Below are positions 1,042 through 58,329 of a DNA stretch of 64,000 nt, one piece after another (the first letter of the stretch is position 1; each line of letters opens with the position of its first letter). The DNA comes from an uncultured Pseudomonadota bacterium (GTDB taxonomy: Bacteria > Pseudomonadota > Alphaproteobacteria > Rs-D84), in assembly GCA_902787305.1 (NCBI GenBank), contig CADAFS010000002.1, forward strand, positions 31,449 through 95,448, in the 5' to 3' direction. Both the position numbers and the translations under genes were made by a program. The notes beneath the pieces were generated by a model. It worked only from the letters and a program-made list of their open reading frames with translations. It did no database searches and was not told the origin of the DNA.

Positions 1042-2937
1042 ATGGGAAAAGTATTAGGTATCGATTTGGGGACGACTAATTCCGCCATGGCGTTCATGGA
1101 CGGAAACGATCCAAAAATTATTGAAAATGCCGAAGGTGGCCGGACAACGCCGTCGGTTGTTGCAATTACATCGAACGGTGAACAGTTGGTCGGTATTACC
1201 GCCAAGAACCAGGCCGTGACGAATCCGGAAAATACTATTTATGAAATCAAACGCCTTATGGGGTTGCGTTATGATAGCCCAGAGGTTAAAGAGATTATGA
1301 AACGCGTGCCTTATAAAATTGTTGCGGGCGACAACGGGGACGCTTGGGTTGAAATTGATGGTAAAAAATATGCACCGTCACAGATTTCGGCGATGATTCT
1401 TGGCAAACTTAAAAAGGATGCGGAAAATTATTTGGGTGAAACGGTGACCGATGCGGTTATTACTGTGCCGGCGTATTTCAACGATTCACAACGTCAGGCA
1501 ACCAAAGATGCCGGTCGTATTGCGGGGTTGAACGTGTTGCGTATTGTGAACGAACCGACCGCGGCGGCGTTGGCGTATGGGTTGGATAAAAGCAAGGACG
1601 GCACAATTGTTGTATATGACCTTGGGGGTGGAACGTTCGATGTGTCGGTGCTTGAAATCGTTGACGGCGTGTTCGAAGTGAAATCAACCAATGGTGATAC
1701 GGCACTTGGTGGGTCGGACTTTGATGCGCGGATTTTGAAATATTTAATTGAAGAATTCAAGGCGCAAACCGGTATTGATTTGTCGAACGATAAATTGGCG
1801 CTGCAACGGTTAAAAGAGGCCGCAGAAAAGGCGAAAATTGAACTTTCGTCCAAGATGTCAACCGATATCAACCTGCCCTTCCTTACGGCGGATGCATCGG
1901 GGCCGAAACATTTCAATACGACATTGACGCGGGCAAAGTTGGAATCGTTGGTGGATGATTTGATTCAAAAAACGATTGAACCGTGCAAAAAGGCGTTAAA
2001 GGACGCGGGTATTGAAAAATCACAAATCAATGAAGTTATCTTGGTCGGTGGTCAAACCCGTATGCCCAAGGTTGTTGAAACGGTCAAAGAATTCTTTGGT
2101 CGCGAACCGCACAAGGGCGTGAACCCGGACGAAGTTGTCGCAATGGGTGCCGCGATTCAGGGTGGCGTGTTAAAGGGCGATGTCAAAGATGTTTTGCTTC
2201 TTGATGTGACACCGTTGTCATTGGGGATTGAAACATTGGGTGGTGTGTTTACACGTCTTATTGACCGCAACACAACAATTCCAACCAAAAAGTCCCAGGT
2301 GTTTTCAACCGCCGAAGATAATCAATCGGCCGTGACAATTCGTGTATTCCAAGGCGAACGCGACATGGCGGCGGATAATAAATTGCTGGGGCAATTTAAT
2401 TTGGAAGGTATCGCACCTGCGCCACGTGGAATGCCGCAAATCGAAGTATCTTTTGATATCGACGCAAATGGTATTGTTCATGTGTCGGCGCGCGATAAAG
2501 GCACGGGCAAAGAACAGGCGATTTCGATTAAATCTGATGGTGGACTTTCCGAAGAAGAAATCAAACGCATGGTTGATGAAGCGGCCGCCAATGCCGATGC
2601 GGACAAGAAAAAACGCGAATTAGCGGAGGCAAAAAATAACGCAGAGGCCGCAATCAACGCGATTGAAAAGTCACTAAAAGAACATGGTGACAAAATAAGC
2701 GCGGATGATAGGGGCGCAATCGAATCGGCCAAGAAGGAATTGGCGGATGAATTGGCGAAATCTGATGCGACCGCAGAATCACTGAAACAAAAGACCGAGG
2801 CATTATCCGAAAAAGCCATGAAACTTGGCGAAGCGGTGTATAAGGCACAACAAGAGGCACAAAATGCCGCCGGTGCAAATACGTCGGATGATAATAAATC
2901 CGATGGCGCACGCGATGCCGATTTTTCGGAAAAATAG
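1042..2937 (+). CDS. dnaK: Molecular chaperone DnaK (Hsp70)
   Basis: 631 aa. [17 protein letters not shown], and the [19 protein letters not shown] ... [24 protein letters not shown] substrate-binding region are canonical DnaK. Strong RBS aggagtaaaaaATG. Confidence 0.95.
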
Positions 2938-2985
2938 TGATGAGTGTTAGTGGTTAGTGAACCCGCCCAAATGGGCGGGTTTTAT
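2935..2985. repeat. Dispersed repeat copy (tagtgatgagtgttagtggttagtga) overlapping dnaK stop + terminator hairpin cccgcccaaatgggcggg-tttt
   Basis: Repeat 2935-2960, hairpin 2962-2984 followed by T-run. Left boundary of cargo cassette containing ORF 3046-3729. Confidence 0.65.
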
Positions 2986-3045
2986 AATAAAAAACTTGAC
3001 TTTATGCTTTATTGTGTTAGGTTTATGATTAATAAGGAGTAAAAA

Positions 3046-3729
3046 ATGAATAAAGTTTATAAGGCCAAAGTAGCTAGAATTGGGAAAAATGCGGCTGGTG
3101 AGGTTGTTATTATTGAAACGCAAGATGGACATTTTTTCCGATCTTGTGCTGAAGAACATAAGTTGAGACCACCAGAACAGAAGAAGCGTTTAGACTTTGT
3201 TTGTATTGCTATTGAAATGCAAGATAGAGTTTTTTTTCAATCTTGTGCAGAAGAACATAAGTTGAGACCACCAGAACAGACGAAGCGTTTATATGAGTCT
3301 GTTTGTGTTGGTGATGAAATAGAATACTCAGAGTTTGACGGTAGCTTTATAATTTTACGTAACATAACCCAAGATGAAAGGAGTGTTAAATCTTTTGTTG
3401 AAGAATCGACTCAATATGCAATAGTTAGTGATTTTTGGCATTCGCCAGACAATAAATCTACTCATATAGAATGTGTAAGTCCTGCTTGGAATGGGGTTAA
3501 TAAATTCGATGTTCCTGGTCATGTTGCGCTTAGATTGCTGGACGAAATAGTTGTAACAAAAACTCCAGGACAAGAAAAAGGAACGCATAACTATCTGTTT
3601 GGCGGTAATGTGACACTTGAGCAAGATATACAAAGAGAAATTCAGGAAAAAGTGTTACCTGGTTGGTCCAAGGAACAATTAGCATTATTGTCAAAATTCT
3701 CAACCGATTCAAACCACAGAAAACGGTAA
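3046..3729 (+). CDS. Hypothetical protein with internal tandem duplication (FFRSCAEEHKLRPPEQKKRL x2)
   Basis: 227-aa ORF with same RBS as dnaK (aggagtaaaaaATG). ~100-nt segment directly duplicated (3133-3190 vs 3233-3290). AT-rich relative to flanks. Bracketed by inverted repeat-family copies. Confidence 0.5.
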   Translation: MNKVYKAKVARIGKNAAGEVVIIETQDGHFFRSCAEEHKLRPPEQKKRLDFVCIAIEMQDRVFFQSCAEEHKLRPPEQTKRLYESVCVGDEIEYSEFDGSFIILRNITQDERSVKSFVEESTQYAIVSDFWHSPDNKSTHIECVSPAWNGVNKFDVPGHVALRLLDEIVVTKTPGQEKGTHNYLFGGNVTLEQDIQREIQEKVLPGWSKEQLALLSKFSTDSNHRKR

Positions 3730-3770
3730 TTTGATTTAATTGAAAATAATCATGAACTTAAAAACATTAA

Positions 3771-3833
3771 AAAAAAAATGGGTGCGGATGCGCCCATTTT
3801 CCACTAACACTAATCACTTACACTGACTACTAT
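3771..3833. terminator. Bidirectional rho-independent terminator (A-run, gggtgcggatgcgccc hairpin, T-run) followed by inverted dispersed-repeat copy (3801-3833)
   Basis: 8-bp stem hairpin flanked by A9 and T4 between convergent genes. Repeat copy is the reverse complement of the family consensus. Confidence 0.7.
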
Positions 3834-3834
3834 T

Positions 3835-5088
3835 TTAACACCATCCGCGCAATTTCATCGCCGCGGCTATGCGTTTTATTGAATACATATACGCGGCTTC
3901 GCGCATGCTGACGCTGTATTCACATTTGATTTTATAAATTGCGTCAAATGCGGAAATCATGGCGGTGTGCTCTTTATCCGCAACTTCGCTTTCCGGCCAA
4001 TAATAACCGTATCGATTCTGTACCCATTCAAAATATGAAACCGTCACGCCGCCGGCGTTCGCCAAAATGTCCGGCACAATCATTACGCCACGTTTTAACA
4101 ACAATTCTTCGGCATCAAGTGTAGTTGGGCCGTTTGCGCCCTCTACTATCAAATTGGTTTTAATTAACGGTGCGGTATCGGTGTTTATTGTGTTTTCCAT
4201 TGCACAGGGGGACAAAACATCCACCGGCAATCCCCAAAAATCGTTGGTGGTTATTACGGTTGCACCCGGGGAATCGGCGATACTGCCTTTATTCATGTCC
4301 TTGTATTTCATAAGTGCATCAATATCGATACCGCTTTCATTATAAAGAATCGTATTCCATTCGGCGATTGCGACAATTTTTGCACCCATGTCAAATGCAC
4401 ATTTGGCGGTGAAACTGCCCACGTTGCCGAAACCTTGGACTGCAATTGTTGCGCCGTTTATATCCTTGGCCATGGTTTTTAGTGCCGACGCGATTGTTGT
4501 TGCAATTCCAAAACCGGTCGCACTGGTTCGCCCCAGTGAACCGTTCAATTCCACCGGTTTCCCGGTAAATGTGCCAAAAGAATTGTCGCCCGAAAGTTTG
4601 ATATATTCATCAATCATCCATGACATAATTTGCCCGTTTGTGTTGACGTCTGGTGCGGGAATGTCGGACTTTTCGCCAAGTATTGGATAAATTGCATCAA
4701 CATACCCGCGGCACAGACGTTCCAATTCGCCCGCCGATAATGTTTTTGGGTCAACGATAATTCCGCCCTTGCCGCCCCCATACGGCAAACCCGTCACCGC
4801 ACATTTGAATGTCATCCAAATTGAAAGCGCGGAAACTTCGTCACGTGACACGGCGGGATGAAAACGGATTCCACCCTTGGACGGTCCCAGTGCGGTATTA
4901 TGTTGTGCGCGGAAACCTGTAAAGGTTTTAATCGAACCATCATCCATTTTAACCGGAATTTGCACTTCGATAATGCGCGCCGGATTCTTTAAAATTTCGT
5001 ATACATTTTTATCAAGGCCCAATTTGTCACACGCAGATTTAACGCGGGCCTGGGCCCCCAATAACGGATTAAGATTTTCATTTGCCAT
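3835..5088 (-). CDS. gdhA: Glutamate dehydrogenase (Glu/Leu/Phe/Val dehydrogenase family)
   Basis: 417 aa. GGGKGG catalytic motif, GFGNVG Rossmann dinucleotide motif, typical bacterial GDH N-terminus. Confidence 0.85.
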   Translation of the reverse strand: MANENLNPLLGAQARVKSACDKLGLDKNVYEILKNPARIIEVQIPVKMDDGSIKTFTGFRAQHNTALGPSKGGIRFHPAVSRDEVSALSIWMTFKCAVTGLPYGGGKGGIIVDPKTLSAGELERLCRGYVDAIYPILGEKSDIPAPDVNTNGQIMSWMIDEYIKLSGDNSFGTFTGKPVELNGSLGRTSATGFGIATTIASALKTMAKDINGATIAVQGFGNVGSFTAKCAFDMGAKIVAIAEWNTILYNESGIDIDALMKYKDMNKGSIADSPGATVITTNDFWGLPVDVLSPCAMENTINTDTAPLIKTNLIVEGANGPTTLDAEELLLKRGVMIVPDILANAGGVTVSYFEWVQNRYGYYWPESEVADKEHTAMISAFDAIYKIKCEYSVSMREAAYMYSIKRIAAAMKLRGWC

Positions 5089-24598: not shown

Positions 24599-25677
24599 TG
24601 AAAAAAATAGCAATTATGACAACGGGTGGCGATTGTAGTGGCCTTAACACCGTGATAAATCGTGTTGTTTTGGGTGCAAGTATTCGCGGGTGGCGGGTTT
24701 ACGGAATCGTTGATGGAACGGACGGACTTTGCTGTAAACCGATAAATGTAATAGAAATGAATACGGAAACCGTGCCGATTGAAAATGCCAGGCTTGCGGG
24801 CAGTTTCCTGCACAACGGGCATGCGTGTATGCTAAATTTTGAAAAGGCGGCGCAAACAGGGCGGATAAAAGAGTTTAATAAAACCCTGCGTGATGCATTG
24901 ATAAAATTAAAGTTGGATGCGCTGATTTTGGTCGGTGGCAACGGCAGTTTTTCACTCGCCTGGTTAAATCGTGAAATTTATCGCGATTTGTCGTTGGTAT
25001 GTATTCCAAAGACCATTGATTTTGACATCCCCCTTACCGACCGAACAATCGGGTTTGATACGGCGGTGGAACAATTGACAAGTTATTGTGACCAGATACT
25101 TTTGACGGCACGCAGTCATCATCGATGGTTCGTGGTGCAAACAATGGGACGCGATTGTGGGCGACTTGCGCTGTATGCGGGAATTGCGGTTGGCGCCGAT
25201 GCGATTTTGGTTCCGGAAATAAAGTTTGATGTTGATGAATTGGTGCAACATATAAAGTCCGTAAATCGCGATTATGGTATCATTATGGTGTCCGAAGGTA
25301 TAACGCTGCGCGGGCATTCGGGGCGACCGGCGGATATGATTGCACGCAAACTTACCGCGGCGGGAATTACGAACCGGACCGCATTTCCGGACTATGTTCA
25401 ACGTGCGGGTGATACGGTGGCGGGCGATCGGTTGCTTGCCGCAAAAATGGCAACCTGTGCATTGAATGCAATTGAAAACAATGAAACATATGTTATGACG
25501 GCGCTGCGTGGGAATGATTGTGTGACGGTGCCACTCGCAGAATTCTATGCTGCGGGCGATGTCAGGGCCGACCCGAATATACCGGCGGTCAAAACGGCAA
25601 ACGCGTATATTGAACCCGATGATCCGTTGTTGCATGTGGCAAGTGATTTGGGTGTTTATGTTGGCGTTAGTGGTTAG
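24599..25677 (+). CDS. pfkA: 6-phosphofructokinase (PFK-A family; ATP or PPi type)
   Basis: MKKIAIMTTGGDCSGLN (GGDGS-like), LVGGNGS, MGRDCGRLALYAGIAVGADAILVPE. RBS ggag before ATG 24599. Final codons and stop fall inside a dispersed-repeat copy (25664-25700). Confidence 0.75.
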
Positions 25678-25700
25678 CGTTAGTGTAAGTGGTTAGTGAG
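25664..25700. repeat. Dispersed repeat copy (gcgttagtggttagcgttagtgtaagtggttagtgag) overlapping pfk 3' end
   Basis: Same TTAGTGTAAGTGGTTAGTGA core. Confidence 0.65.
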
Positions 25701-25886
25701 ATTTGTATTCAATTGCTTGACTTTTGGATATTTTTAGTGCAAAATGTATTTGCAAATCCCAAAGATTGCCATTTGAATCAAACCTGTGTGCGGTATGCAC
25801 AAGGCGCATCATCCGTTGAGTTTTCAACCTTGATGTTGGTTTTCTTTGTGGGGTAAAACAGTTTCTTTAAAAAAAGGAGTATAAAA

Positions 25887-26336
25887 ATGGCAACTGTTAT
25901 TCGTTTGGCACGCTATGGTGCAAAAAAACGCCCGTATTATCACATTGTTGTGACCGATTCACGCAATGCGCGTAATTCTGGTAATGTGTTAGAGGTTGTT
26001 GGTAAATACGACCCAATGTTGGCGCGTGATAATGAAAAGCGCGTAATCCTTAAGGTTGAAGAAATCAAGGCGTGGTTGGCAAAGGGTGCGCGTGCATCCG
26101 ACCGTGTGTATCGGTTCCTGGCCAATGCGGGTTTGGTCGCAAAACGTGTGATTCCAACACAGACGAAAAAGAATTTGCAATCTGAAAAAACATTGCAAAA
26201 AATCAAAGACAAGGCCGATAAATTAGCGAAACTGGCCGAAGAAAAAGCCGCGGCCGAAGCCGCCGCCAAGGCCGCAGCTGAGGCACCGGCAGAAACACCG
26301 GCAGCGGAATCCGCAACCGAAGCATCAGCGGAATAA
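25887..26336 (+). CDS. rpsP: 30S ribosomal protein S16 with Ala/Glu-rich C-terminal extension
   Basis: [32 protein letters not shown] is canonical S16. Confidence 0.9.
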
Positions 26337-26339
26337 TAT

Positions 26340-26675
26340 ATGTCATCGGATACGCGCATCTTGGTTGGGGAAAAATATATACCACCTGTAGCAACGGTTG
26401 TTAGTGTGTTATCGCAGTATACTGTTTTATGCGGTTCGTCGGGGCATTCTGTTGACACAGCTTCATGTTCAATGTGCATTCCCGAAACAACATGCCCATT
26501 TAATGGCGAACCGTGTGTTGACAAACAGAAACTTCTTGATGCATGGCGGCGATCCGTTGAATATATGGCGCAACACCATATCAATCATGTCTTTTTTACT
26601 ACCGATTCAATGTTTGGTGGGTGTCCCAAAGGGTTTGCCGAATTATGCCCAGATTCTAATCAGAGGCAACACTAA
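26340..26675 (+). CDS. Hypothetical Cys-rich small protein inserted between rpsP and rimM
   Basis: 111-aa ORF with 7 Cys. Occupies entire rpsP-rimM spacer, starts 4 nt after rpsP stop, ends 3 nt before rimM. Confidence 0.3.
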   Translation: MSSDTRILVGEKYIPPVATVVSVLSQYTVLCGSSGHSVDTASCSMCIPETTCPFNGEPCVDKQKLLDAWRRSVEYMAQHHINHVFFTTDSMFGGCPKGFAELCPDSNQRQH

Positions 26676-26677
26676 AT

Positions 26678-27142
26678 ATGACCGATAGTAAAAACATCTT
26701 GGTTGGGAAAATTGTTGCCCCCCGTGGCATTAGGGGCGAAGTGCGTGTTCAAACCTTTACCGAAAAACCGTCGGATTTTCAAAAACTGGCGGTTTTTGGG
26801 GATAAAATTCCGGCCGACGCATTGCATTTTGTGTGGGCGGTTCCAAACGCCGATGTTGTTGTTATGCGCGTGGACGGTGTTTGCGATAGAAATGCGGCAA
26901 AAACATTGCGCGGGACGGAACTTTTTATAAACCGCGATGATTTGCCCGCCCTGCGTGACGGCGAATATTACCAGGCAGATTTGATTGGAATGATGGTTGT
27001 CCGTGATGGTGCGGAATTGGGCCGCATTGTGTGCTTTCAAAACTTTGGTGCCGGCGACATTATGGAATTAGATAATGGCGATATGGTGTCTTTTCGGGGG
27101 GCGAGTGTAGATTTTGAAAAGAAAACAATAACAGTAAAATAA
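26678..27142 (+). CDS. rimM: Ribosome maturation factor RimM
   Basis: MTDSKNILVGKIVAPRGIRGEVRV... PRC-barrel C-terminus. Conserved position in S16 operon. Confidence 0.85.
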   Translation: MTDSKNILVGKIVAPRGIRGEVRVQTFTEKPSDFQKLAVFGDKIPADALHFVWAVPNADVVVMRVDGVCDRNAAKTLRGTELFINRDDLPALRDGEYYQADLIGMMVVRDGAELGRIVCFQNFGAGDIMELDNGDMVSFRGASVDFEKKTITVK

Positions 27143-27154
27143 AGGGTGATAAAA

Positions 27155-27646
27155 ATGAATGAACAATCGTTGGTTTGCGATATCTGTACATGGGAACGGT
27201 TGCCAGAACCCACTGCGTGTCAATTTCAAGAAGTTAAAGGTGGAAATTTTGGCGGGTGTTATGCGACACCAACAGATCTTTTGAGTGTATTGAAAGATCC
27301 AGAAGCAGTTTTTGGTGTGGGGACAGCACCATTCATAAAGAAATTCAGTTTCGATAACGCTCTTAATCGCATGCCAGCGTGTGAATGTGTCACATCGTTA
27401 TCCGAATGTCCCGTGGCGAAATTTATAGCCGATAACAAAATGAACTGTCTGTTATATTTTGAGAAATGTGGTTACGATTTTTTACATAGTGACGGCAATC
27501 TTAGATATTATTTTCATTATGAATTTAATCTGGACCATGACGATATAAGTAAGTATTATAGGGAGATGCTTAAAATATATAACGCATGTAAAATGCGTCA
27601 ATCACCTGTATTTACAAGATTGAAATCAAAACAAAATGCACTTTAA
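27155..27646 (+). CDS. Hypothetical Cys-rich protein inserted between rimM and trmD
   Basis: ~164 aa with 10 Cys (CDIC...C...C, ACEC...SEC). AGGGTG RBS 7 nt before ATG 27155 (GTG 27146 alternative). AT-rich. Overlaps trmD start by 11 nt. Confidence 0.35.
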   Translation: MNEQSLVCDICTWERLPEPTACQFQEVKGGNFGGCYATPTDLLSVLKDPEAVFGVGTAPFIKKFSFDNALNRMPACECVTSLSECPVAKFIADNKMNCLLYFEKCGYDFLHSDGNLRYYFHYEFNLDHDDISKYYREMLKIYNACKMRQSPVFTRLKSKQNAL

Positions 27647-28334
27647 TATATTGACCGTTTTTCCAGAAATGTTTCCGGGCACACTTGGTGCCGGGGTGGT
27701 TGGTCGTGCCTTGGCGGACGGAATTTGGTCGTATAATGTTATAAACATTCGCGATTTTGCCATAAATGATTACGGCAGTGTTGATGACGCACAATTCGGT
27801 GGCGGTGCCGGCATGGTTATGCGCCCCGATGCGTTGGGTGCGGCGATTGATTCAATCGAAAAACCGGGGCAAATTATATACTTTTCCCCGCGTGGGGCGC
27901 GTTTAGACCAAAAAATGGTACGCAGGTTCGCGGGTGATGCGAAAAACGCGGTTTATACCCTGCTCTGTGGTCGGTACGAAGGAATTGACCAACGGGTAAT
28001 TGATGAATATAATATCATGGAATTATCCATTGGCGATTATATCTTGTCTGGTGGTGAAATCGCCGCGCAAGTTTTTATTGACAGCGCGGTTCGCGTGTTG
28101 GATAATGTCCTTGGTGGCGGTGCGGAATCGACCACCACGGAAAGTTTTGAAATCGGGGGGTTGGAATGGCCGTTATATACCCGCCCGTCGGTATGGCGTG
28201 GACGAAAAGTCCCAGAAGTCCTGCTGTCTGGTCACCACGGCAACATAGAACGGTGGCGGAAACAACAATCGGACGAAATAACAAAAATGCGTCGTCCGGA
28301 TTTAATAAAGGAAAATAAAAATGAACATAATTAA
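27636..28334 (+). CDS. trmD: tRNA (guanine37-N1)-methyltransferase TrmD
   Basis: [15 protein letters not shown]... SPOUT-fold TrmD signature. Conserved operon position. Confidence 0.9.
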
Positions 28335-28728
28335 AAAAATCGAAGAAAAAAATATCGCAAAGGTCAAAGGCGACAAGGTTATTCCGAATTTCAAGGCGGG
28401 TGATACTTTGCGCGTGCATGTAAAAATCAAAGATGGCGACAAATTCCGTATTCAATTGTTCGAAGGTGTCGTGATTGCGCGTGACGGTGGCATGGGCAAT
28501 ACCGCATCGTTCACGGTTCGTCGTGAATCTTATGGTGTTGGTGTTGAACGCAAGTTCCCACTGTACAGCCCGGCAATCGAAAAAATTGAAAAGGTTCGTA
28601 TTGGTCGCGTGCGTCGTGCGAAATTGTTCTTTTTACGGAAATTGTCTGGTAAAAAGGCGCGTATTGTCGAAGATTTGGCGGCAACAAGCGCGGAAAAAGG
28701 CACAAAGACCGAAAAGAGCGAAAAATAA
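28321..28728 (+). CDS. rplS: 50S ribosomal protein L19
   Basis: ...[45 protein letters not shown]... canonical L19. Confidence 0.9.
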
Positions 28729-28750
28729 ATTCCCATCTGATTCACAAAAA

Positions 28751-28775
28751 TCCCGCAAATGCGGGATTTTTTGTT
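28751..28775 (+). terminator. Rho-independent terminator of S16 operon (atcccgcaaatgcgggat + T6)
   Basis: 7-bp stem, T-run. Confidence 0.75.
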
Positions 28776-28816
28776 GTTAAAAATTACCACCTCTCTATTT
28801 CTGTATCGGTCCATAT

Positions 28817-28865
28817 TGTTAGTTGTAAGTGGTTAGTAAAACCGGCGCAAAAACGCCGGTTTTCA
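28817..28865. repeat. Dispersed repeat copy (ttgttagttgtaagtggttagta) + bidirectional terminator hairpin accggcgcaaaaacgccggt
   Basis: Left boundary of second cargo cassette. Hairpin flanked by A-run/T-run. Confidence 0.65.
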
Positions 28866-29591
28866 TTATGCGTTTTTTGTTTTTCCACAACGTGCATTAT
28901 AACAAAACACAAAACCAGAATCCAAATAACATGGCATTGTTTCACGGGCGTAGCGCAACAGATTAAGAGATGGGCGACAAATTTGTGTCGTTGCAAAAAC
29001 AAACGCATCAAAACCCGACAGCAATTTTGCACTTTTGGCCTTTGAACTTTCGTAATCAAAAAACCATTGATTCATTTGATTAATATCCCAATCGCCTTTG
29101 GCATCTTTTTCATTAACAGTAATGCTGTTCAATGTTGCCCGGTCACCATTTTCCATATGTTTCATAAAGGTTTTGTCATATGGATTCTTTACAAACCCAT
29201 GTTGGCCATTAACCCATTCGTCATTTTTTACCGATTTTACTGTATATAAACAATAATTATCGTCAATGATTGTTGGTTTACCAAAATGCATGTCAAAAAC
29301 GGGTTGTATAGACTCTGGAAAAGGAAGCATGACAGCATTCACAACACGTGCACCACATTGCAGCAACAGGCCATAGTCGCGCATATAGCGAATTCCTGTC
29401 GTTGATGTGCTGGCCGAAACATAGTCGTGCAACATAAAGACATATTTGCCTTCAAAAGCCCTTTGTGATATTGGTGTGCGTTGTAAATTCTGTAAATCAT
29501 ATTTTTGCAAAATTGTTTCTGCCCGATTCAGCATTTTAAGTCCTTTATATTTTTTCTTTTTATTTTTGGATTTCGGTTGATTTTTTACCAA
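28866..29591 (-). CDS. Hypothetical protein (241 aa; probable start MLNRAE at ~29535)
   Basis: ORF only. Lys-rich N-terminal extension probably not translated. Located inside the repeat-bracketed cassette. Confidence 0.4.
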   Translation of the reverse strand: MVKNQPKSKNKKKKYKGLKMLNRAETILQKYDLQNLQRTPISQRAFEGKYVFMLHDYVSASTSTTGIRYMRDYGLLLQCGARVVNAVMLPFPESIQPVFDMHFGKPTIIDDNYCLYTVKSVKNDEWVNGQHGFVKNPYDKTFMKHMENGDRATLNSITVNEKDAKGDWDINQMNQWFFDYESSKAKSAKLLSGFDAFVFATTQICRPSLNLLRYARETMPCYLDSGFVFCYNARCGKTKNA

Positions 29592-29889
29592 AAAAAATTT
29601 GACAAGCGGACAGTGCTTCTTCCGGTTTTTCTTGAATTCGTTTTTCTATCTTGGCGGTCCAAATTGTGCAATCGGGGACCAATGGCAGCAACCCCAGGCA
29701 AATATTTACTTCCTTGACCGAAATCAAACGGTTGGAGTTCGTATCCGCCAATCCGTCCACAAATGATTTAAAATTACGAAAATGTTCGCTGGCCCGTTTG
29801 CACACTTGGCCGTTCACACTGCAAATATATGTTTGGGTGTTCCAATCTTGCAATTCATACAAAGGCTCTAATCCAATTTCTTTTGACAT
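29560..29889 (-). CDS. Hypothetical protein (109 aa), overlapping downstream gene by 32 nt
   Basis: ORF with 4 Cys. Co-oriented with 28866-29591. Confidence 0.35.
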   Translation of the reverse strand: MSKEIGLEPLYELQDWNTQTYICSVNGQVCKRASEHFRNFKSFVDGLADTNSNRLISVKEVNICLGLLPLVPDCTIWTAKIEKRIQEKPEEALSACQIFFGKKSTEIQK

Positions 29890-29953
29890 TTTTGTTTCCT
29901 TTGGTTTTATGGGTATGGTACTATAAAATCACGGGAAGTCAACGATAAATACC

Positions 29954-29976
29954 CCACTAACACTAACCACTTGCAC
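29954..29976. repeat. Dispersed repeat copy, inverted (ccactaacactaaccacttgcac); right boundary of cassette 28817-29976
   Basis: Reverse complement of family core. Followed by small hairpin acgac-ac-gtcgt. Confidence 0.6.
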
Positions 29977-30051
29977 CCGTCACGACACGTCGTACCGCGG
30001 TTACACTTTTTTAATTTGACTTGCCGGCGATATGGCGATAGTATATGGGTG

Positions 30052-30396
30052 ATGAAAAAAATTCTTGTTTCTTTATTGACCATATTTACCGCGTTTGGGG
30101 CGCATGCGTATATTGACCGTGATACCGCGGTTTTACAGGTTATGAACAAGGCCGCCGGCAAGACCCAGACGATTATGGCACCCGTGGGGCGGGAGGTTCG
30201 TTTTGAAAAATTGAACTTTTTGGTGCGTGCGTGCAAACAATCTGACCCTTTTGATGCGGAAAATTTTTATGCGTTTACGGAAATTTCGCGCCCCGACGGT
30301 GGTATGATTTATAGTAATTGGTTGGACCGGAATAATCCCGGTAAAAACCCGGTACAAAATGCCGACTATGATATATGGTTGTTGCGGTGTGAATAG
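30052..30396 (+). CDS. Small secreted protein (DUF2155-like)
   Basis: Signal peptide MKKILVSLLTIFTAFGAHA. Conserved Cys pair. Family assignment from memory, low certainty. Confidence 0.35.
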   Translation: MKKILVSLLTIFTAFGAHAYIDRDTAVLQVMNKAAGKTQTIMAPVGREVRFEKLNFLVRACKQSDPFDAENFYAFTEISRPDGGMIYSNWLDRNNPGKNPVQNADYDIWLLRCE

Positions 30397-50444: not shown

Positions 50445-50539
50445 ATAGTGGGAAGTGTTAGTGTAAGTGGTTAGTGAGCGGGGCAATTGCACGATTATTC
50501 CAGAATCCACTTATCACTTACACTAACCACTTACACTAT
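50445..50539. repeat. Inverted pair of dispersed repeat (atagtgggaagtgttagtgtaagtggttagtgag ... ccacttatcacttacactaaccacttacactat), 'empty' MITE-like unit
   Basis: Forward 50445-50478, reverse 50507-50539. ~28 bp between them. Confidence 0.65.
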
Positions 50540-53250
50540 CTCAACATCTTGTAAATAAAGTTTATTGGCACGATTAGCAATGCCAGGCCGGCGGTGGTCA
50601 ACCATTGTACCGGGGTTAGTGGTTCAAGTGACAAAACATTACCGCCGAACGTCACACATGCATAAAGACCGGCAAAAACAACAAATGTCACAATCAAAAA
50701 CATTGGATTTTTGGATAGGCCTGAAAATATATCAAAACCACGCACCCGAACACAGAATCCATTTAGCATTGCCATAATTATTATCAACGCAAACCGGGCG
50801 GACATGGCCGCATCGCCAAAAATTGCAACAAATGGTTCGGCAAGGGTCAGTGTGAATATAAACACACCCGCAATTGTTGTCCATATAACCCCCGCGATTG
50901 TGTCGCCGGTAATAAGTTTTGCGTTTTTGCCCGCGGGTGGTTCGGTCATATATTCCGCGCGCGGTGGTTCGCCACCGAACGCAAGCGAATTCAAACTGTC
51001 GATTACAATGTTTATTATCAGTATCTGTACGGCCATCAATGCCTCTATACCGATAACCAGTGGGAACAAAATACTTATCGCCGCCAGTGTAAAGTTTATC
51101 GGCAATTGAAATCGCAAGAATCCCGTCACATTGTGCATAAATGTTCGGCCCATAAGGATACTGTTGCCAATGGAAACAAAGTTGTTGTCCGTGATTATGA
51201 TATCACTTGCTTCCTTGCATACATCGGTGCTGTCGCCCATGGCGTATCCGACATCCGCACCCTTTAATGCCGGCGCATCGTTTGTACCATCGCCACACAT
51301 ACCGATACAAAGCCCCATTTCTTGGGCAATTTGAACAAGGCGTAATTTTGTATGTGGGGTTGCGCGCGCAATAACACGAATTTGTGGCAAAATGCGTTTG
51401 ACCGCCGCGTCGGACATTTTATCAAATTCGGTTGCGGTTATGGCGATATCATCGTCACTTTGCAAAATTTTACTTTCGCGGGCGATAACACGCGCCGTTT
51501 CCAATATATCGCCCGTTATCATCATAACAGACACACCTGAACCCTGCAATTCCGTCACCATATCCGCAACACCGGGGCGCACATCGTCACGCAACGCGGA
51601 AACACCGATGAATACTAAATTGTTTGGCATTTCGCCCGATTTATGTGTTCCATCATAATATGCCGTTGCGATAACACGCATGGCACGCCGGGCATTAGAC
51701 ACAATAATTCGTCGCACCGTTGCCCGGTTTAATGGATGCGTTGCGCCGGTCGCATCAACATAAAACCGCGAATGTGCAAGGATAATTTCCGGCGCCGCCA
51801 TGACATAGGTGCGCAGCCCCGACTTGGTTTTAACCGTTGTTGCGGAAAACTTGGTCGCACTATCGAATAGGGTTTTTGTTAAAACCTGGTTTTCGCGCTT
51901 TATGGTGGACACCATTTTATGATTTAATCCCAATGCACCAAACAGCGCGCGTTCCGTACTGTTGCCACCAACGATTTGCCCGCCCGCATCAAGCATGGCA
52001 CGCCCATTTAAGACGATGTTATTCATCAACAATCGCACGGCCACGCCACCCGTATTTTGGTTAAACCAAATGTTTGTGCCATCGCCGGTATAATTTGCCA
52101 CAGGTTGCATTTTCCCATACGTAATTGTGCCGGTTTTATCGGTGCAAAGTAATTGTATATTTCCCGCCTCTGGAATTTTATTCGGATTTTTCGCAAGCAA
52201 GTTTTCGCGTGTCATTTTGTGTGCGTTTTGGGCGGTTATGATTTCAATGATAAACGGCAAACCTTCGGGAACCGCCGCCACGAATATAGTAAGCCCCAAT
52301 GTTATCGCATGCGCCACAGTAAGCACAAAATCGCCGAGTCCGTTAAATCCGTCCAAATACCAATGCATGACAACCATGATAACCGCAATACAAATCGCGC
52401 AAATTCCGCCAATTTGTCCAACAACGCCCGCCATTCGGTCAAGGCCACGTTGCAACGCCGTTTTTTCTTCGCCGATATCGGACAAGGTTTTTAATATCTT
52501 GGCATTTTCGGTATCCATTCCAACGCGTGTGACAATCATTGCGCCGCCGCCACCATGAACCGTCGTTCCGGCAAAGACATAGTTCGCGTTGGTATAATCG
52601 TTCGCTGTTATTGGGGCCGCACGATTATATTTGAAATTTGGGAGTGGGGATTTGTGAACCTCTTCACTTTCGCCATTTAGAACGGAATTATTTACCGAAA
52701 TATGCCCGTGGACCAAGTATCCATCCGCCGGGATTCTTTCGCCGGCCTGGAGCAAAACTATATCGCCGACAACTATTTCGGTGCTGTCGATATTTCGGAT
52801 TCGTCCGCCGCGGATAACATTGCACAAAAGCACCGATGCACGCCGCCGCAATTCAAGAGTGCTGTGTTGGCTGCGCAGATGGGTAATAACATTTACAATC
52901 GCAACAATAATGATAACGATGCCGATACCAATCGCCTCTATAATATCGCCATAGCCAAGCAGTGCAAGGCCGATGAACAAACCCGCCATTATAAGTAAAA
53001 TTAGGTTTATTTTTGTCCGAAAGACATCGACCAAGAAATCCCATACACTTTTGACCCGCGGATCGGGCATGGTGTTCGATCCATATTTCTTGCGATTTTG
53101 CGCGACGGCCGCCAAAGATAACCCGTTTAGTGTCAAAAATCCCCCCTGCTTTCTGTGTCCGCATTTTATCGCATTTTTGCCCCCCGGGGCAAGGAGAATT
53201 TTTTGATTATTTACCCGTAATTTGCATAATTGATTGCAATATATGCCCAT
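50536..53250 (-). CDS. Cation-transporting P-type ATPase (P2-type, Ca2+/Mg2+-like)
   Basis: 904 aa. DKTGTIT phosphorylation site, MITGD, GDGTNDAPALKGADVGYAMG, 10 TM segments, N-terminal ...GLS..AAVAQNRKKYGSN. True start unclear (overlaps NUDIX gene 3' end). Confidence 0.85.
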   Translation of the reverse strand: MGIYCNQLCKLRVNNQKILLAPGGKNAIKCGHRKQGGFLTLNGLSLAAVAQNRKKYGSNTMPDPRVKSVWDFLVDVFRTKINLILLIMAGLFIGLALLGYGDIIEAIGIGIVIIIVAIVNVITHLRSQHSTLELRRRASVLLCNVIRGGRIRNIDSTEIVVGDIVLLQAGERIPADGYLVHGHISVNNSVLNGESEEVHKSPLPNFKYNRAAPITANDYTNANYVFAGTTVHGGGGAMIVTRVGMDTENAKILKTLSDIGEEKTALQRGLDRMAGVVGQIGGICAICIAVIMVVMHWYLDGFNGLGDFVLTVAHAITLGLTIFVAAVPEGLPFIIEIITAQNAHKMTRENLLAKNPNKIPEAGNIQLLCTDKTGTITYGKMQPVANYTGDGTNIWFNQNTGGVAVRLLMNNIVLNGRAMLDAGGQIVGGNSTERALFGALGLNHKMVSTIKRENQVLTKTLFDSATKFSATTVKTKSGLRTYVMAAPEIILAHSRFYVDATGATHPLNRATVRRIIVSNARRAMRVIATAYYDGTHKSGEMPNNLVFIGVSALRDDVRPGVADMVTELQGSGVSVMMITGDILETARVIARESKILQSDDDIAITATEFDKMSDAAVKRILPQIRVIARATPHTKLRLVQIAQEMGLCIGMCGDGTNDAPALKGADVGYAMGDSTDVCKEASDIIITDNNFVSIGNSILMGRTFMHNVTGFLRFQLPINFTLAAISILFPLVIGIEALMAVQILIINIVIDSLNSLAFGGEPPRAEYMTEPPAGKNAKLITGDTIAGVIWTTIAGVFIFTLTLAEPFVAIFGDAAMSARFALIIIMAMLNGFCVRVRGFDIFSGLSKNPMFLIVTFVVFAGLYACVTFGGNVLSLEPLTPVQWLTTAGLALLIVPINFIYKMLR

Positions 53251-54955: not shown

Positions 54956-56248
54956 ATGGTCAAAATGCAAGAAAAAAATATAAAAACTTTATCTTTTGGG
55001 TGCCGTCTTAACGCGATGGAATGCGAACGGATTGGCGGGATGTTGTCGCGCGCCGGCGTTTGCGCGGTGGTTGTGAATACCTGTGCCGTGACCGCAGAGG
55101 CCGAACGCCAATGTGGCCAGGCGGTGCGAAAAATCGCACGCGAAAATCCGGGTGCAATAATTTTTGTGACCGGGTGCGCCGCGACAAGGAATCCGGGACT
55201 GTTTGAAAAAATTCCGGGTGCGGCGGTTATTCCGAACGAAAAAAAGATGGATTTAGATGTTTATCTGGGTAAATTATCGCAAAAAAATCGCGGCAATTCG
55301 TGCCCGGAAATAACCGGTAATTTTGATACAGAAAACAAACTTTCCAAAAAGTTTATTCAGATTCAAAACGGATGCAATCACGATTGCACTTATTGTGTGA
55401 CGCGACTGCTCCGTGGGCCGGCGGTGTCGTTCGAATATGATGAAATTTTGGCAAATGTGCGTGCGGCGACCGCGGATGGGTTTGGGGAAATTGTGCTAAC
55501 CGGTGTGGATGCGGCATCTTATGTTCGGGTTTATGACGGGCGGCCATTTTTGATTTCAGATTTGTGCCGGCGGTTGTTAAAAGACGCACCGGAAATTGAA
55601 CGGCTGCGCCTTTCGTCGGTGGACCCGGCGGTGCCGGCAATCCGCGATATTATCAAAATGATGAAAAGCGAACCCCGTTTTATGCCACATTTGCACCTTT
55701 CCATGCAGTCGGGGTCGGACACGATTTTGCACGCGATGCGGCGGCGACACACGGCGGACACGGTGCGCGATTTGGCGCGCCTTGCGAATGGAAGTGTTAG
55801 TTTTAGTTGGGATATAATCTGTGGTTTTCCAGGCGAAACGGAAGAATTATTTGCCGATACATTAGAATTGGCGCGCGAATTAAAACCAATAAGGATTCAC
55901 GCATTTCCTTTTTCGCCCCGCCCCGGGACGGTGGCGGCGAATATGCCGAACCCGGTTCCACGCAATATCGCACGGGCGCGCGTTCATAAAATAACCGCCG
56001 TTGCGGATGAAAACTTGCGTGAGTTTATGGAACGTCAGGTCGGCAATATGTGCCGGGTTTTGGTTGAATCCGACAATATCGCACGCACACCGGATGATAT
56101 CCCGATTAAAATTGGCGGTGCGCCCATCCCGCCCCGCACAATTTGCGATGTAAAGATTACCGGGATTGATGACGGGGTGTTAGTGGGCGGTCCGTCCCGT
56201 CACCGCAAAGCGGTGCCGAGGCCGCGACGGACTAACCACTTACATTAA
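54956..56248 (+). CDS. mtaB: Radical-SAM methylthiotransferase, MiaB/RimO/MtaB family (likely tRNA t6A37 methylthiotransferase MtaB)
   Basis: N-terminal MTTase domain Cys triad (C..C..C in FGCRLNAMECE...VNTCAV...TGCAA). Radical-SAM CNHDCTYC. TRAM-like C-terminus. Stop codon lies in a dispersed-repeat copy (56231-56249). Confidence 0.75.
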   Translation: MVKMQEKNIKTLSFGCRLNAMECERIGGMLSRAGVCAVVVNTCAVTAEAERQCGQAVRKIARENPGAIIFVTGCAATRNPGLFEKIPGAAVIPNEKKMDLDVYLGKLSQKNRGNSCPEITGNFDTENKLSKKFIQIQNGCNHDCTYCVTRLLRGPAVSFEYDEILANVRAATADGFGEIVLTGVDAASYVRVYDGRPFLISDLCRRLLKDAPEIERLRLSSVDPAVPAIRDIIKMMKSEPRFMPHLHLSMQSGSDTILHAMRRRHTADTVRDLARLANGSVSFSWDIICGFPGETEELFADTLELARELKPIRIHAFPFSPRPGTVAANMPNPVPRNIARARVHKITAVADENLREFMERQVGNMCRVLVESDNIARTPDDIPIKIGGAPIPPRTICDVKITGIDDGVLVGGPSRHRKAVPRPRRTNHLH

Positions 56249-57513: not shown

Positions 57514-57861
57514 TGTGTCCTCTCCCATTTTGTTTGTTGTTATGAAAAAACGTCGCCAAATGGGACGTGTCGGGGTGTTCAAAAACCATACAAGACAATG
57601 ATCCCAAGGCCTTTTGCCGAAGCATTATAACCATTGGCACCCCAACAATAGGGGTATATCAAAATGACGGCACAGAATATCGGAAATTCTATGGATTACG
57701 ACATAATGTGCCGGTCTTGTATTGGGTTTTTGAAGACCCGAAATTCAGAATCCCTTCTGACTTCGCTCTTATACTATCACGAATCGGGTTTGCGGGGCAA
57801 GTGGTTTTTTATAACGCATAAAAATACCGCGATTTCCGCGGTGTTGATAACATTTTTGTCT

Positions 57862-58329
57862 TTATGACTTTAACAACCGGGCGCGGGATTTTTCCCATTC
57901 GCGGCGTTTTATTGTTTCACGTTTATCCGCGCGGTTTTTACCGTGACCAATGCCCAGCAAAACCTTTAACCGGCCACGATTATTGAAATAGAGTTTTAAT
58001 GGAAATATGGTTGCGCCCCGGTCATTTAGCCGCCCAATCATGCGGTTTATTTGCGTCCGGTGCAACAAAAGCCGCCGTGGCCGACGTTCGTCAAAGTTTG
58101 TAATGCGCGCCGCGGTGGGTAATTTTTGAATTTCGATGCCCGCAAGATATAAATCCGTTCCGCGTTTTTGCACAAACCCATCAACAATCGTGACCAGGCC
58201 GTAACGAAGTGACTTAACCTCTGCCCCACTTAGTTCGATGCCCGCCTCTATCGTGTCTTCGGTAACATAACTGAACCGCGCTTTGCGGTTTTCAGAAACA
58301 GGGCCAAATTTTATCATACTGCGTGGCAT
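57862..58329 (-). CDS. smpB: SsrA-binding protein SmpB
   Basis: 155 aa. ...ENRKARFSYVTEDTIEAGIELSGAEVKS... canonical SmpB. Confidence 0.9.
   Translation of the reverse strand: MPRSMIKFGPVSENRKARFSYVTEDTIEAGIELSGAEVKSLRYGLVTIVDGFVQKRGTDLYLAGIEIQKLPTAARITNFDERRPRRLLLHRTQINRMIGRLNDRGATIFPLKLYFNNRGRLKVLLGIGHGKNRADKRETIKRREWEKSRARLLKS

Follow-up and report, generated by a model that had tools for sequence, protein, structure and literature searches.

A probable hypervariable accessory-gene slot beside rplS in Candidatus Enterousia, and the heptamer repeats found around it

We analyzed a 64,000-nucleotide window of an alphaproteobacterial genome (contig CADAFS010000002.1 of assembly GCA_902787305.1, positions 31,449 to 95,448), and in particular the short variable segment that lies just downstream of the ribosomal protein gene rplS. 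The rpsP-rimM-trmD-rplS operon, at 25887-28728 on the plus strand, is immediately 5′ of this segment. Past the other end lies a DUF2155 gene (30052-30396, plus strand), followed by an AmiA-like gene, tsaD and xseA, and the gap between rplS and the DUF2155 gene is filled by two minus-strand ORFan genes, orf109 and orf241. The host is Candidatus Enterousia, of the order Rs-D84; two metagenome-assembled genomes (MAGs) of Candidatus Enterousia sp., JAZKZR and JAZRLA, are among the loci with an identical RplS protein. Rs-D84 bacteria, including Candidatus Enterousia, are uncultured inhabitants of gut and rumen, and the genus Enterousia has a fermentative metabolism and genomes that are mostly smaller than 1 Mb (PMC12306168). 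In our reading, which we consider probable, 28773-29886 is the allele carried by one strain at a hypervariable slot for accessory genes, located between rplS and DUF2155 in Candidatus Enterousia and related Rs-D84 gut Alphaproteobacteria. In what follows, L-numbers denote loci of relatives, P-numbers denote homologous proteins, and an arm is one repeat copy. The features of the segment, with lengths in nucleotides (nt) or amino acids (aa), are:

28746-28771, plus strand: intrinsic terminator of rplS, from a terminator scan.
28784-28822, minus strand: remnant of a long form of orf241, consisting of its last 12 codons and stop, LTIWTDTEIERW*, with the trailer TTTTTAACAACAAAAAA.
28814-28839, plus strand: left repeat copy (repeat family D1).
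28838-28863, both strands: bidirectional hairpin terminator, A4-CCGGCG-loop-CGCCGG-T4, 2 nt past the orf241 stop.
28866-29534, minus strand: short form of orf241, 222 aa, starting at ATG 29534.
28866-29591, minus strand: longest form of orf241, 241 aa, with a TTG start.
29535-29559, minus strand: spacer with the orf241 leader and the ribosome-binding site (RBS) AAAGAAAAAATATAAAGGACTTAAA; putative junction of the orf109 and orf241 modules.
29560-29889, minus strand: orf109, an open reading frame (ORF) of 109 aa.
29890-29942, minus strand: slot promoter and 5′ leader, with a -35 element TTGACT (29942-29937), a -10 element TACCAT (29920-29915) and the RBS AAAGGAAAC.
29954-29976, minus strand: right repeat copy (repeat family D20), immediately upstream of the slot -35 element.
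29979-29996, no strand assigned: imperfect palindrome GTCACGAC-ACGTCGTAC, which abuts the right arm and is perfect in relatives as GTCACGACATGTCGTGAC.

The original prediction for this DNA had treated these features as a single cargo cassette, in which inverted repeat copies bracket two co-oriented minus-strand ORFs of 241 and 109 aa that overlap by 32 nt, with a bidirectional terminator at one end. The flanking repeats, on opposite strands, and the two ORFs are present as described, and the terminator corresponds to the hairpin AAAACCGGCG-CAAAAA-CGCCGGTTTT, which folds at -18.1 kcal/mol (z = -4.0) as minus-strand RNA and at -17.6 kcal/mol on the plus strand. The segment had also been called AT-rich relative to the ribosomal operon and both proteins Cys-containing, and both statements hold. 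GC content is 38.3% for 28773-29883 versus 47.3% for the rpsP, rimM, trmD and rplS coding sequences and 42.5% for the whole window, and there are 6 cysteines in the 222-aa form of orf241 and 5 in the 109-aa orf109. The overlap is doubtful. It exists only with the most upstream TTG, and ATG 29534, which is preceded by an AAGGA RBS, gives a 25-nt spacer and zero overlap. Gene callers assigned 222 aa to orf241 on identical haplotypes from two other samples (L011, L012). The start of orf241 is most likely ATG 29534, for a product of 222 aa, and since this codon has an RBS and is the one used by the callers on identical haplotypes, the 32-nt overlap is probably a longest-ORF artefact.

The case for a variable slot comes from comparison with close relatives. 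More than 70 contigs encode an identical RplS. At ten loci with 100% identical RplS, the interval between rplS and DUF2155 holds 3-12 differing genes without Pfam hits, together with a small PQ-loop gene beside rplS. Clustering places the array genes of these loci in ~20 families that occur in shuffled combinations, and the array DNA is 36-39% GC. The flanks are 92-97% identical to the window and the orf109 region is 87-89% identical (blastn). On the left, homology ends at 28772, the end of the rplS terminator (blastn alignments against L001-L010 stop at 28772-28776); on the right, it resumes at 29884-29887, at the orf109 start codon. Inside the slot only 29523-29902 aligns, at 87-89%, to an internal cassette of some relatives. 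The relatives' arrays consist of tightly packed genes behind the slot promoter, with stereotyped 14-20-nt spacers, TAA-AAAAGGAnnATAAAA-ATG, between them and an optional distal block of opposite-strand genes beside rplS. The slot is used across species of the clade, with other gene sets in L013-L018, L136, L140 and L141. The window allele, also found in two other samples, is the shortest seen and is without the PQ-loop gene. Genomes below 1 Mb are expected to be streamlined and stable; this slot, beside a ribosomal operon, holds differing, fast-evolving gene sets in close strains.

The PQ-loop gene, which encodes a 96-aa protein, adjoins rplS in nearly all of the other haplotypes (L001-L010) and is missing from the window allele. 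From its size and Pfam family, we infer that the protein is SemiSWEET-like.

The slot appears, from its sequence, to be a single minus-strand transcription unit that runs from a conserved sigma-70-like promoter, divergent from the DUF2155 gene, to the hairpin at 28838-28863. The promoter scan gave the arrangement TTGACT-16 nt-TACCAT in the window, and an identical promoter/leader sequence precedes differing first genes in L001-L008 and L141. The imperfect palindrome at 29979-29996 resembles a composite repeat of the clade, 'CCGTCACGAC...GCCGCGACGG + arm', found in L031, L038, L039, L054, L069 and L082. Because this composite repeat matches it elsewhere, the palindrome may not be a locus-specific operator, and we rejected it as an RNA structure, its fold being no better than that of shuffled sequence (z = -0.2).

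Strain-variable genes behind one promoter recall an integron, whose cassettes would be inserted at the spacers by a site-specific recombinase. The genes are indeed co-oriented (the optional distal opposite-strand block aside), promoterless and tightly packed, and their order and content are shuffled between strains. We nonetheless regard an integron-like array as very unlikely. The spacers are 14-25 nt of A-rich RBS sequence, too short and insufficiently palindromic for attC; there is no intI-like gene beside the promoter in any haplotype; and the junctions coincide with the RBS and start codon instead of a conserved core site. With attC sites and integrase both missing, the explanation fails. 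A related arrangement is the recombinase-associated array of orphan immunity genes (rAID) of gut Bacteroidales. Integron arrays and rAID share with the slot strain-variable, small, co-oriented genes, a single promoter and a gene pool common to integrase-bearing elements. They differ in that the slot has no adjacent integrase, no attC-like sites and, in our search with array members, no match to a known immunity family.

Of the two window genes, orf109 has the clearer history in the slot. The arrays of L002, L003 and L006-L009 contain orthologues with 77-84% identity, and paralogues with 42-48% identity are present in most arrays; on these alignments, orf109 appears to be a member of a gene family resident in the slot, F0. 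Four cysteines (C23, C30, C64 and C74) are conserved in alignments of the family, and the product is probably a small protein stabilized by four cysteines. We considered a shared Cys-motif superfamily (C-x6-7-C followed by a helix) uniting orf109, other array families and ORFs of the rpsP-rimM-trmD region, and rejected it because a hidden Markov model built on the orf109 family failed to detect any of the others, even with E raised to 10.

A homologue of orf109 also links the slot to mobile DNA. P0012 (114 aa, 66% identical to orf109) occurs as an identical copy in the slot (L141, L144) and in an island (L142, L143) that carries an HTH_17 protein, an integrase, a resolvase and a type IIG restriction-modification enzyme. 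In the island, P0012 lies downstream of the restriction-modification gene in the same co-oriented gene series, with a slot-type spacer following the restriction-modification gene, and a three-gene, 1.3-kb block is 93% identical between the slot and island contexts. A long form of orf241 adjoins a phage-type integrase, a McrB-like gene and an HNH-domain gene in L135. The segment could on this basis be the decayed remains of an integrative element, a prophage or island once inserted downstream of rplS, with strain differences produced by differential decay. The 36-39% GC of the arrays, near that of the integrase island L142 (37%), the block shared with L142, and the orf241 homologue beside an integrase in L135 are all compatible with such an origin, which we nevertheless judge quite unlikely. 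No integrase or recombinase family was found among the called genes of the ten RplS-identical loci, L013-L016, L141 and L144, and no relatives of phage or plasmid origin were found in the GenBank phage collection, PLSDB or IMG/VR. Moreover, the slot has intact ORFs, tidy RBS spacers and a dedicated promoter that is conserved, it shows no att remnants, and it is variable across several species through replacements and additions, not losses alone.

Relatives of orf241 are few: a search of 5.8 billion proteins yielded 7 clusters, and one of 1.84 billion yielded 5 representatives. They fall into long and short forms. Long forms (247-264 aa, 45-48% identical) are found at this slot in other lineages, where they are the first gene in L013-L018 (47% identity), the only gene in L136, and an internal gene with ordinary spacers in L140. 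Short forms are those of the window, P0001 (90% identical) and P0002 (69%), and each has a homologous hairpin and arm on its 3′ side; in L137 and L146 the orf241 homologue is followed by such a hairpin. In L137 the short-form unit lies inside the slot and consists of an arm, GGGGG, a TTGACA..TATCTT promoter, the leader, the gene, the hairpin and an arm. Its upstream arm comes after a truncated gene start (ATGGCT), and the gene is preceded by the same leader as at 29535-29559. In L146 the orf241 unit is at another locus, between a gene with its stop codon inside an arm and smpB.

The AlphaFold2 model of orf241 has an alpha/beta fold (predicted local distance difference test, pLDDT, 86.5; predicted template modeling score, pTM, 0.86). 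Its best PDB fold matches in Foldseek were to one phosphoglycerate kinase domain, at a template modeling (TM) score of ~0.5 and 11-16% identity, values that we read as a generic Rossmann-like resemblance. Alignment shows the invariant motifs HD, GARVV, DK, GDRATL, GFD, ATT and MPCxLDS, with H36/D37, R132 and C202/D205 among the invariant residues, and since these motifs are polar, an enzyme is suggested; from the model and alignment, orf241 is probably an enzyme with a Rossmann-like fold that belongs to a tiny, clade-restricted family. The confident model and the invariant motifs also favor a genuine protein. The model of orf109 reached a pLDDT of only 59, and its fold search returned nothing below E = 5. 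Structure prediction and fold search, proposed along with the original prediction, thus gave a Rossmann-like model for orf241, no informative fold match, and a poor model for orf109.

Both proteins evolve rapidly next to their conserved neighbors. The ratio of nonsynonymous to synonymous substitution rates (dN/dS) was 0.9-1.3 for orf109 against close orthologues and 0.44 against L141, and for orf241 it was 0.51 against L137 and ~0.2 against the long forms. The reference genes rplS and trmD gave 0 and 0.07, in a set that leaves out the DUF2155 comparison, which was out of frame.

Two small co-oriented genes in one transcription unit, within an accessory AT-rich region, might be taken for a toxin-antitoxin pair or another obligate two-gene module. 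The distribution of orf109 and orf241 largely refutes this idea, to which we give almost no credence. Orthologues of orf109 lie between other genes in L002, L003 and L007, and an orf241 homologue can be the sole gene (L136), have other partners (L013, L140) or form a single-gene unit (L137, L146), so that the two genes do not co-occur as a module would. In addition, the overlap disappears with the ATG start, Pfam, PADLOC and NCBIfam, whose families include toxins and antitoxins, returned no match for either protein, and the Rossmann-like fold of orf241 matches no toxin fold, the orf109 model being too poor for such a comparison. The synteny comparison also qualifies the description of the genes as cargo. 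Homologues of both occupy the same slot without flanking repeats in several relatives, as variable and often absent members, not as core genes.

Returning to the accessory-gene slot, its junctions suggest how the window allele was assembled. The right-flank tract begins at 29884 and the internal-cassette tract extends to 29902, so the two share 19 nt covering the RBS and ATG (29884-29902). At its other end, homology to the relatives' orf109 cassette stops at 29523-29534, at the orf109 stop and spacer, where the orf241 leader starts. Between the window and L137, identity is 94% from the orf241 leader to the rplS terminator, and the arm up to the -35 element is also common to the two. Close to the rplS terminator, the remnant LTIWTDTEIERW aligns with the C-terminus of the long form in L136 (..VTIWNGTEREL) and with L140, 18 of 22 nt being identical over the TIWxxTE codons, and the trailer TTTTTAACAACAAAAAA likewise precedes the rplS terminator in long-form alleles. 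Because the remnant and trailer align with long forms, the hairpin and arm appear to replace ~45 nt of long-form coding sequence.

By these positions, the window allele is a mosaic, built from two independent modules. The first is orf109, a resident slot gene joined directly to the slot leader, and the second consists of the short-form orf241 with its own leader, the hairpin and one repeat copy. Since the internal-cassette and right-flank tracts share the RBS and ATG, orf109 may have been joined to the slot leader by a deletion at that microhomology, and the short-form orf241 module may have overwritten a resident long-form allele. More generally, genes would turn over by homologous recombination in the conserved flanks and also by microhomology-mediated or illegitimate recombination at the A-rich RBS spacers and repeats, presumably with no dedicated recombinase acting at the slot, and the genes themselves would be drawn from a pool common to integrase-bearing mobile islands.

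Slots of this general kind are familiar. The 'minimal mobile elements' of Neisseria are sites between conserved genes at which strains carry different genes, exchanged by homologous recombination. Like these elements and other flexible islands or hypervariable regions, the Enterousia slot has conserved core flanks (rplS on one side; DUF2155, AmiA-like and tsaD on the other), differs in gene content and has lower-GC DNA in close strains, lacks a recombinase at the site and is reused across species. Unlike them, it is very small (1.1-7 kb, in a genome of less than 1 Mb) and forms a single operon with one conserved promoter, stereotyped 14-20-nt spacers and junctions on RBS spacers, and its members are all without database homologues.

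The two repeat copies near the segment belong to a much larger family. The window contains 12 occurrences of the core AAGTGGTTAGT (≤1 mismatch) versus 0.56 expected, and 0 of 100 shuffles reach 12. Copies on the plus strand are at 862-898, 2930-2960, 25664-25700, 28814-28839 and 50445-50478, and copies on the minus strand at 921-963, 3794-3836, 29954-29976, 50494-50543 and 56230-56245. Each arm is built of tandem GTTAGTG/GTAAGTG-type heptamers, in which TAG, TGA and TAA stops cover three frames, and arm length ranges from 2 to ~20 heptamer units. Beyond the window, more than 116 stretches match GTGTWAGTGGTTAGTG, mostly in Candidatus Enterousia and rumen or gut Alphaproteobacteria MAGs (one genome per species was scanned). 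Of 150 copies in these loci, 93 are positioned -45 to +16 nt from where an open frame of ≥80 codons ends, and the usual 3′ neighbor of an arm is a GC-rich hairpin or a conserved AT-rich palindrome. A plus arm is separated from the next minus arm by 20-102 nt in 30 pairs and by 168-3202 nt in another 13. In the window, 'empty' palindromes at 862-963 and 50445-50543 fold at -49 and -37 kcal/mol (z = -8.5 and -5.0), and two sites are 'filled', 2930-3836 by one gene and the other being the orf109/orf241 segment. Elsewhere, filled pairs contain small genes without known relatives, tRNA genes (L027, L112) or nothing obvious. Rfam returned only two tRNAs for the window and only tRNA genes for eight repeat loci, including filled pairs, and we found no prior description of a heptamer repeat family of this kind. 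On sequence grounds, the repeats appear to be a genus-wide family, usually placed between a stop codon and a GC-rich terminator hairpin and often in inverted pairs 20-100 nt apart, which sometimes travel with single genes; they are not the edges of the two-gene segment.

At the slot, the truly inserted part of the left copy is, by alignment, ~28820-28837, or two heptamer units, its outer 6-9 nt overlapping the coding remnant; this copy is present in L011, L012 and L137 and not in L001-L010. The right copy is found in L001, L004, L005, L007 and L141 despite unrelated gene sets, and is shorter in L002 and L003, degenerate in L136, and absent from L013 and from the slot promoter of L137. Within the 3-12-gene arrays of L001-L010, no arms were found at the rplS side or between array genes. 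Repeats are also common enough that a short unit may be bracketed by accident: arms occur in 7 of the 26 window intergenic gaps of at least 40 nt, and since they do, bracketing of a short unit is compatible with chance, a crude estimate giving ~0.5-1.8 bracketed units per window versus 2 seen.

The number of heptamer units in the arm upstream of the slot -35 element varies by strain, being 2, 3 or 4 among the window and L002-L007. This suggests slippage, and the variation could alter the promoter context.

We also weighed the view closest to the original prediction, in which the repeats are terminal inverted repeats of a non-autonomous mobile cassette, resembling a miniature inverted-repeat transposable element (MITE) or mobile insertion cassette (MIC), and the 1.1-kb segment moved as a whole, either with a transposase acting in trans or by exchange into empty sites. 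In its favor, two unrelated loci (L137, L146) carry the orf241 unit complete with both repeats and with promoter (TTGACA..TATCTT) and hairpin in common. The upstream repeat of L137 comes after a truncated gene start and so cannot be the 3′ punctuation of a neighboring gene. There are also 30 'empty' palindromes and several 'filled' ones with the frame repeat-hairpin-promoter-gene-hairpin-repeat, shared by units in L038, L039, L069 and L082; a filled site of the window at 2930-3836, hereafter cassette 1, is not found in L003 or L007 at the dnaK/gdh junction; and the presence of a repeat is polymorphic at the end of pfk. Against movement of the segment as a cassette, strain-specific DNA has its limits at 28772 and 29884 rather than at the repeats, the right copy is part of the conserved slot promoter and accompanies gene sets that are unrelated, and orf109 is resident in the slot without repeats in relatives. 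No target-site duplication was seen at the dnaK/gdh site or the L137 junctions, and the L137 event was a replacement, not a simple insertion. Nor did the loci that we read (as distinct from whole genomes, which were not scanned) contain a transposase or a REP-associated tyrosine transposase (RAYT) gene. Some filled pairs contain tRNA genes, the variable slots of the rpsP-rimM-trmD region have no repeats, and bracketing is compatible with chance at this repeat density. Although we consider the cassette explanation unlikely, we keep it as a live rival because the orf241 unit and other units of the same frame travel with both arms. The word cargo is therefore only partly apt: the genes are accessory, their families lie beside integrases elsewhere, and the orf241 unit is repeat-bracketed in L137 and L146, but the repeats do not delimit the variable DNA and the two genes are not one unit.

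A bolder version would make the heptamer palindromes docking sites of a new gene-cassette system, in which self-contained promoter-gene-terminator units, bracketed by arms rich in stop codons, would move between empty arm-hairpin-arm sites, guided by the repeats or driven by an enzyme. The orf241 unit would then be cargo encoding a new Rossmann-like family of conflict enzymes, and the window segment a cassette fused with a variable operon. We offer this tentatively, as a doubtful but conceivable extension. If repeat-bracketed units were truly mobile, they would represent a compact new route of gene movement in reduced genomes, and the slot genes would be good candidates for strain-specific defence or interaction functions.

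Short extragenic palindromes include the enterobacterial repetitive extragenic palindromes (REP) and bacterial interspersed mosaic elements (BIME), the Rickettsia palindromic elements (RPE), the Correia elements of Neisseria, and inverted pairs of DNA uptake sequences that serve as terminators. Like REP and BIME, the heptamer repeats are short, high-copy and clade-specific, lie at gene 3′ ends, form inverted pairs around terminator hairpins and occur in composite forms; their presence is strain-variable, and one copy lies where there was once coding sequence. They differ from REP and BIME in that each arm is a tandem array of 2-20 heptamers with stops in three frames, often supplying the stop of the upstream gene, and in showing no similarity to Rfam families and no RAYT or other transposase in the loci read, whole genomes not having been scanned. 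MICs and MITEs, by comparison, carry passenger genes within inverted repeats and have no transposase of their own. As with these elements, single passenger genes lie between inverted repeats, 'empty' versions are far commoner, and the orf241 unit is found at two loci. Unlike them, the heptamer repeats show no target-site duplications, and neither a cognate insertion sequence nor a transposase was seen in the loci read; the repeats bracket tRNA genes as well, and in the window they are not the limits of the variable DNA.

As for the function of the slot genes, their variability, their integrase and restriction contexts and the fast evolution of their proteins lead us to propose that they are most plausibly fast-evolving, strain-specific conflict proteins with roles in defence, counter-defence or interbacterial competition. 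A number of points weigh against this proposal and against the slot model. Neither orf109 nor orf241 has a match in Pfam, PHROGs, PADLOC or NCBIfam, in agreement with the original failure to recognize a family, and orf241 gave nothing by PDB sequence profile or in BFVD; as regards known anti-phage defence, neither window protein matches the PADLOC models. The conflict role draws on variability, two integrase/restriction-island contexts and one marginal PDC-M12B hit, and on nothing else. The near-unity dN/dS of orf109 could reflect relaxed constraint instead of diversifying selection. The recombination mechanism is read from junction positions only, and L137 and L146 are short metagenome contigs of 1.7 and 1.5 kb. 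Finally, the movement of the orf241 unit with both repeats leaves room for repeat-dependent mobility, which we treat as secondary.

The PDC-M12B hit belongs to a 191-aa array gene of L003 (15609-16184) that is not in the window. It is the only defence-library hit of the slot genes (PADLOC, E = 1.8e-4, 19 bits).

Genomes differ on the downstream side of smpB as well, with a small ORF and a plain hairpin in the window (57567-57867) and the orf241 unit in L146. The window smpB thus has another neighbor and no repeats, so this locus provides no empty/filled comparison for the L146 insertion.

Variable genes are also found within the neighboring ribosomal operon. ORFs at 26340-26675 (111 aa) and 27146-27646 (166 aa) exactly fill the rpsP/rimM and rimM/trmD gaps, and neither has a relative in any locus that we read. 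RplS-identical strains have other ORFs in these gaps (127, 80, 54+97, 89 and 95 aa) or none. Many ORFs of the rimM/trmD gap encode small four-Cys proteins with a CxxC...K/R ending, and some keep their place across species, as with the 97-aa ORF of L003 and the 96-aa ORF of L013, which are 55% identical. No repeat arms flank the variable gaps of rpsP-rimM-trmD.

Several observations concern the repeats elsewhere. The longest arm seen is in a sheep-gut Alphaproteobacteria MAG (L044, 5301-5439), where 139 nt, or ~20 units, extend past a gene end. The AT-rich palindrome TCTGGAATAATTTCATAATTGCGAAATTATTCCAGA is a second conserved repeat, which forms the center of many arm pairs in several species; it was seen in L031, L036, L051, L056, L062, L069 and L070, and a partial copy is at 50478-50510 of the window. 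A third, composite repeat consists of a GC-rich hairpin, CCGTCACGACCGCGG...GCCGCGACGG, between arms and recurs across species (window 56170-56245, L031, L038, L039, L054, L069, L082); it resembles the palindrome beside the right arm. At the pfk 3′ end (25664-25700), the arm provides the last codons and TAG stop of the gene in the window and L002, and in L003, L005 and L007 pfk is without the arm and ends ..GVMD*. In L001 and L004 homology starts at 25711, just past the arm, and in the place of pfk there is an upstream giant gene of 2289-2414 aa without known relatives.

Cassette 1 lies between dnaK and gdh, which in L003 are separated by 52 nt. Its gene (3046-3729, 227 aa) has no known relatives and contains an internal 99-nt tandem duplication (3111-3192 and 3210-3291), and the frame of the unit is arm-hairpin-promoter-gene-hairpin-arm. 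A DnaK-based search for further haplotypes of cassette 1 returned only that of the window itself. In Ca. Enterousia sp. SGB_7130 (L145), the protein of cassette 1 is 54% identical, and the 3′ untranslated region, hairpin and arm are 93% identical.

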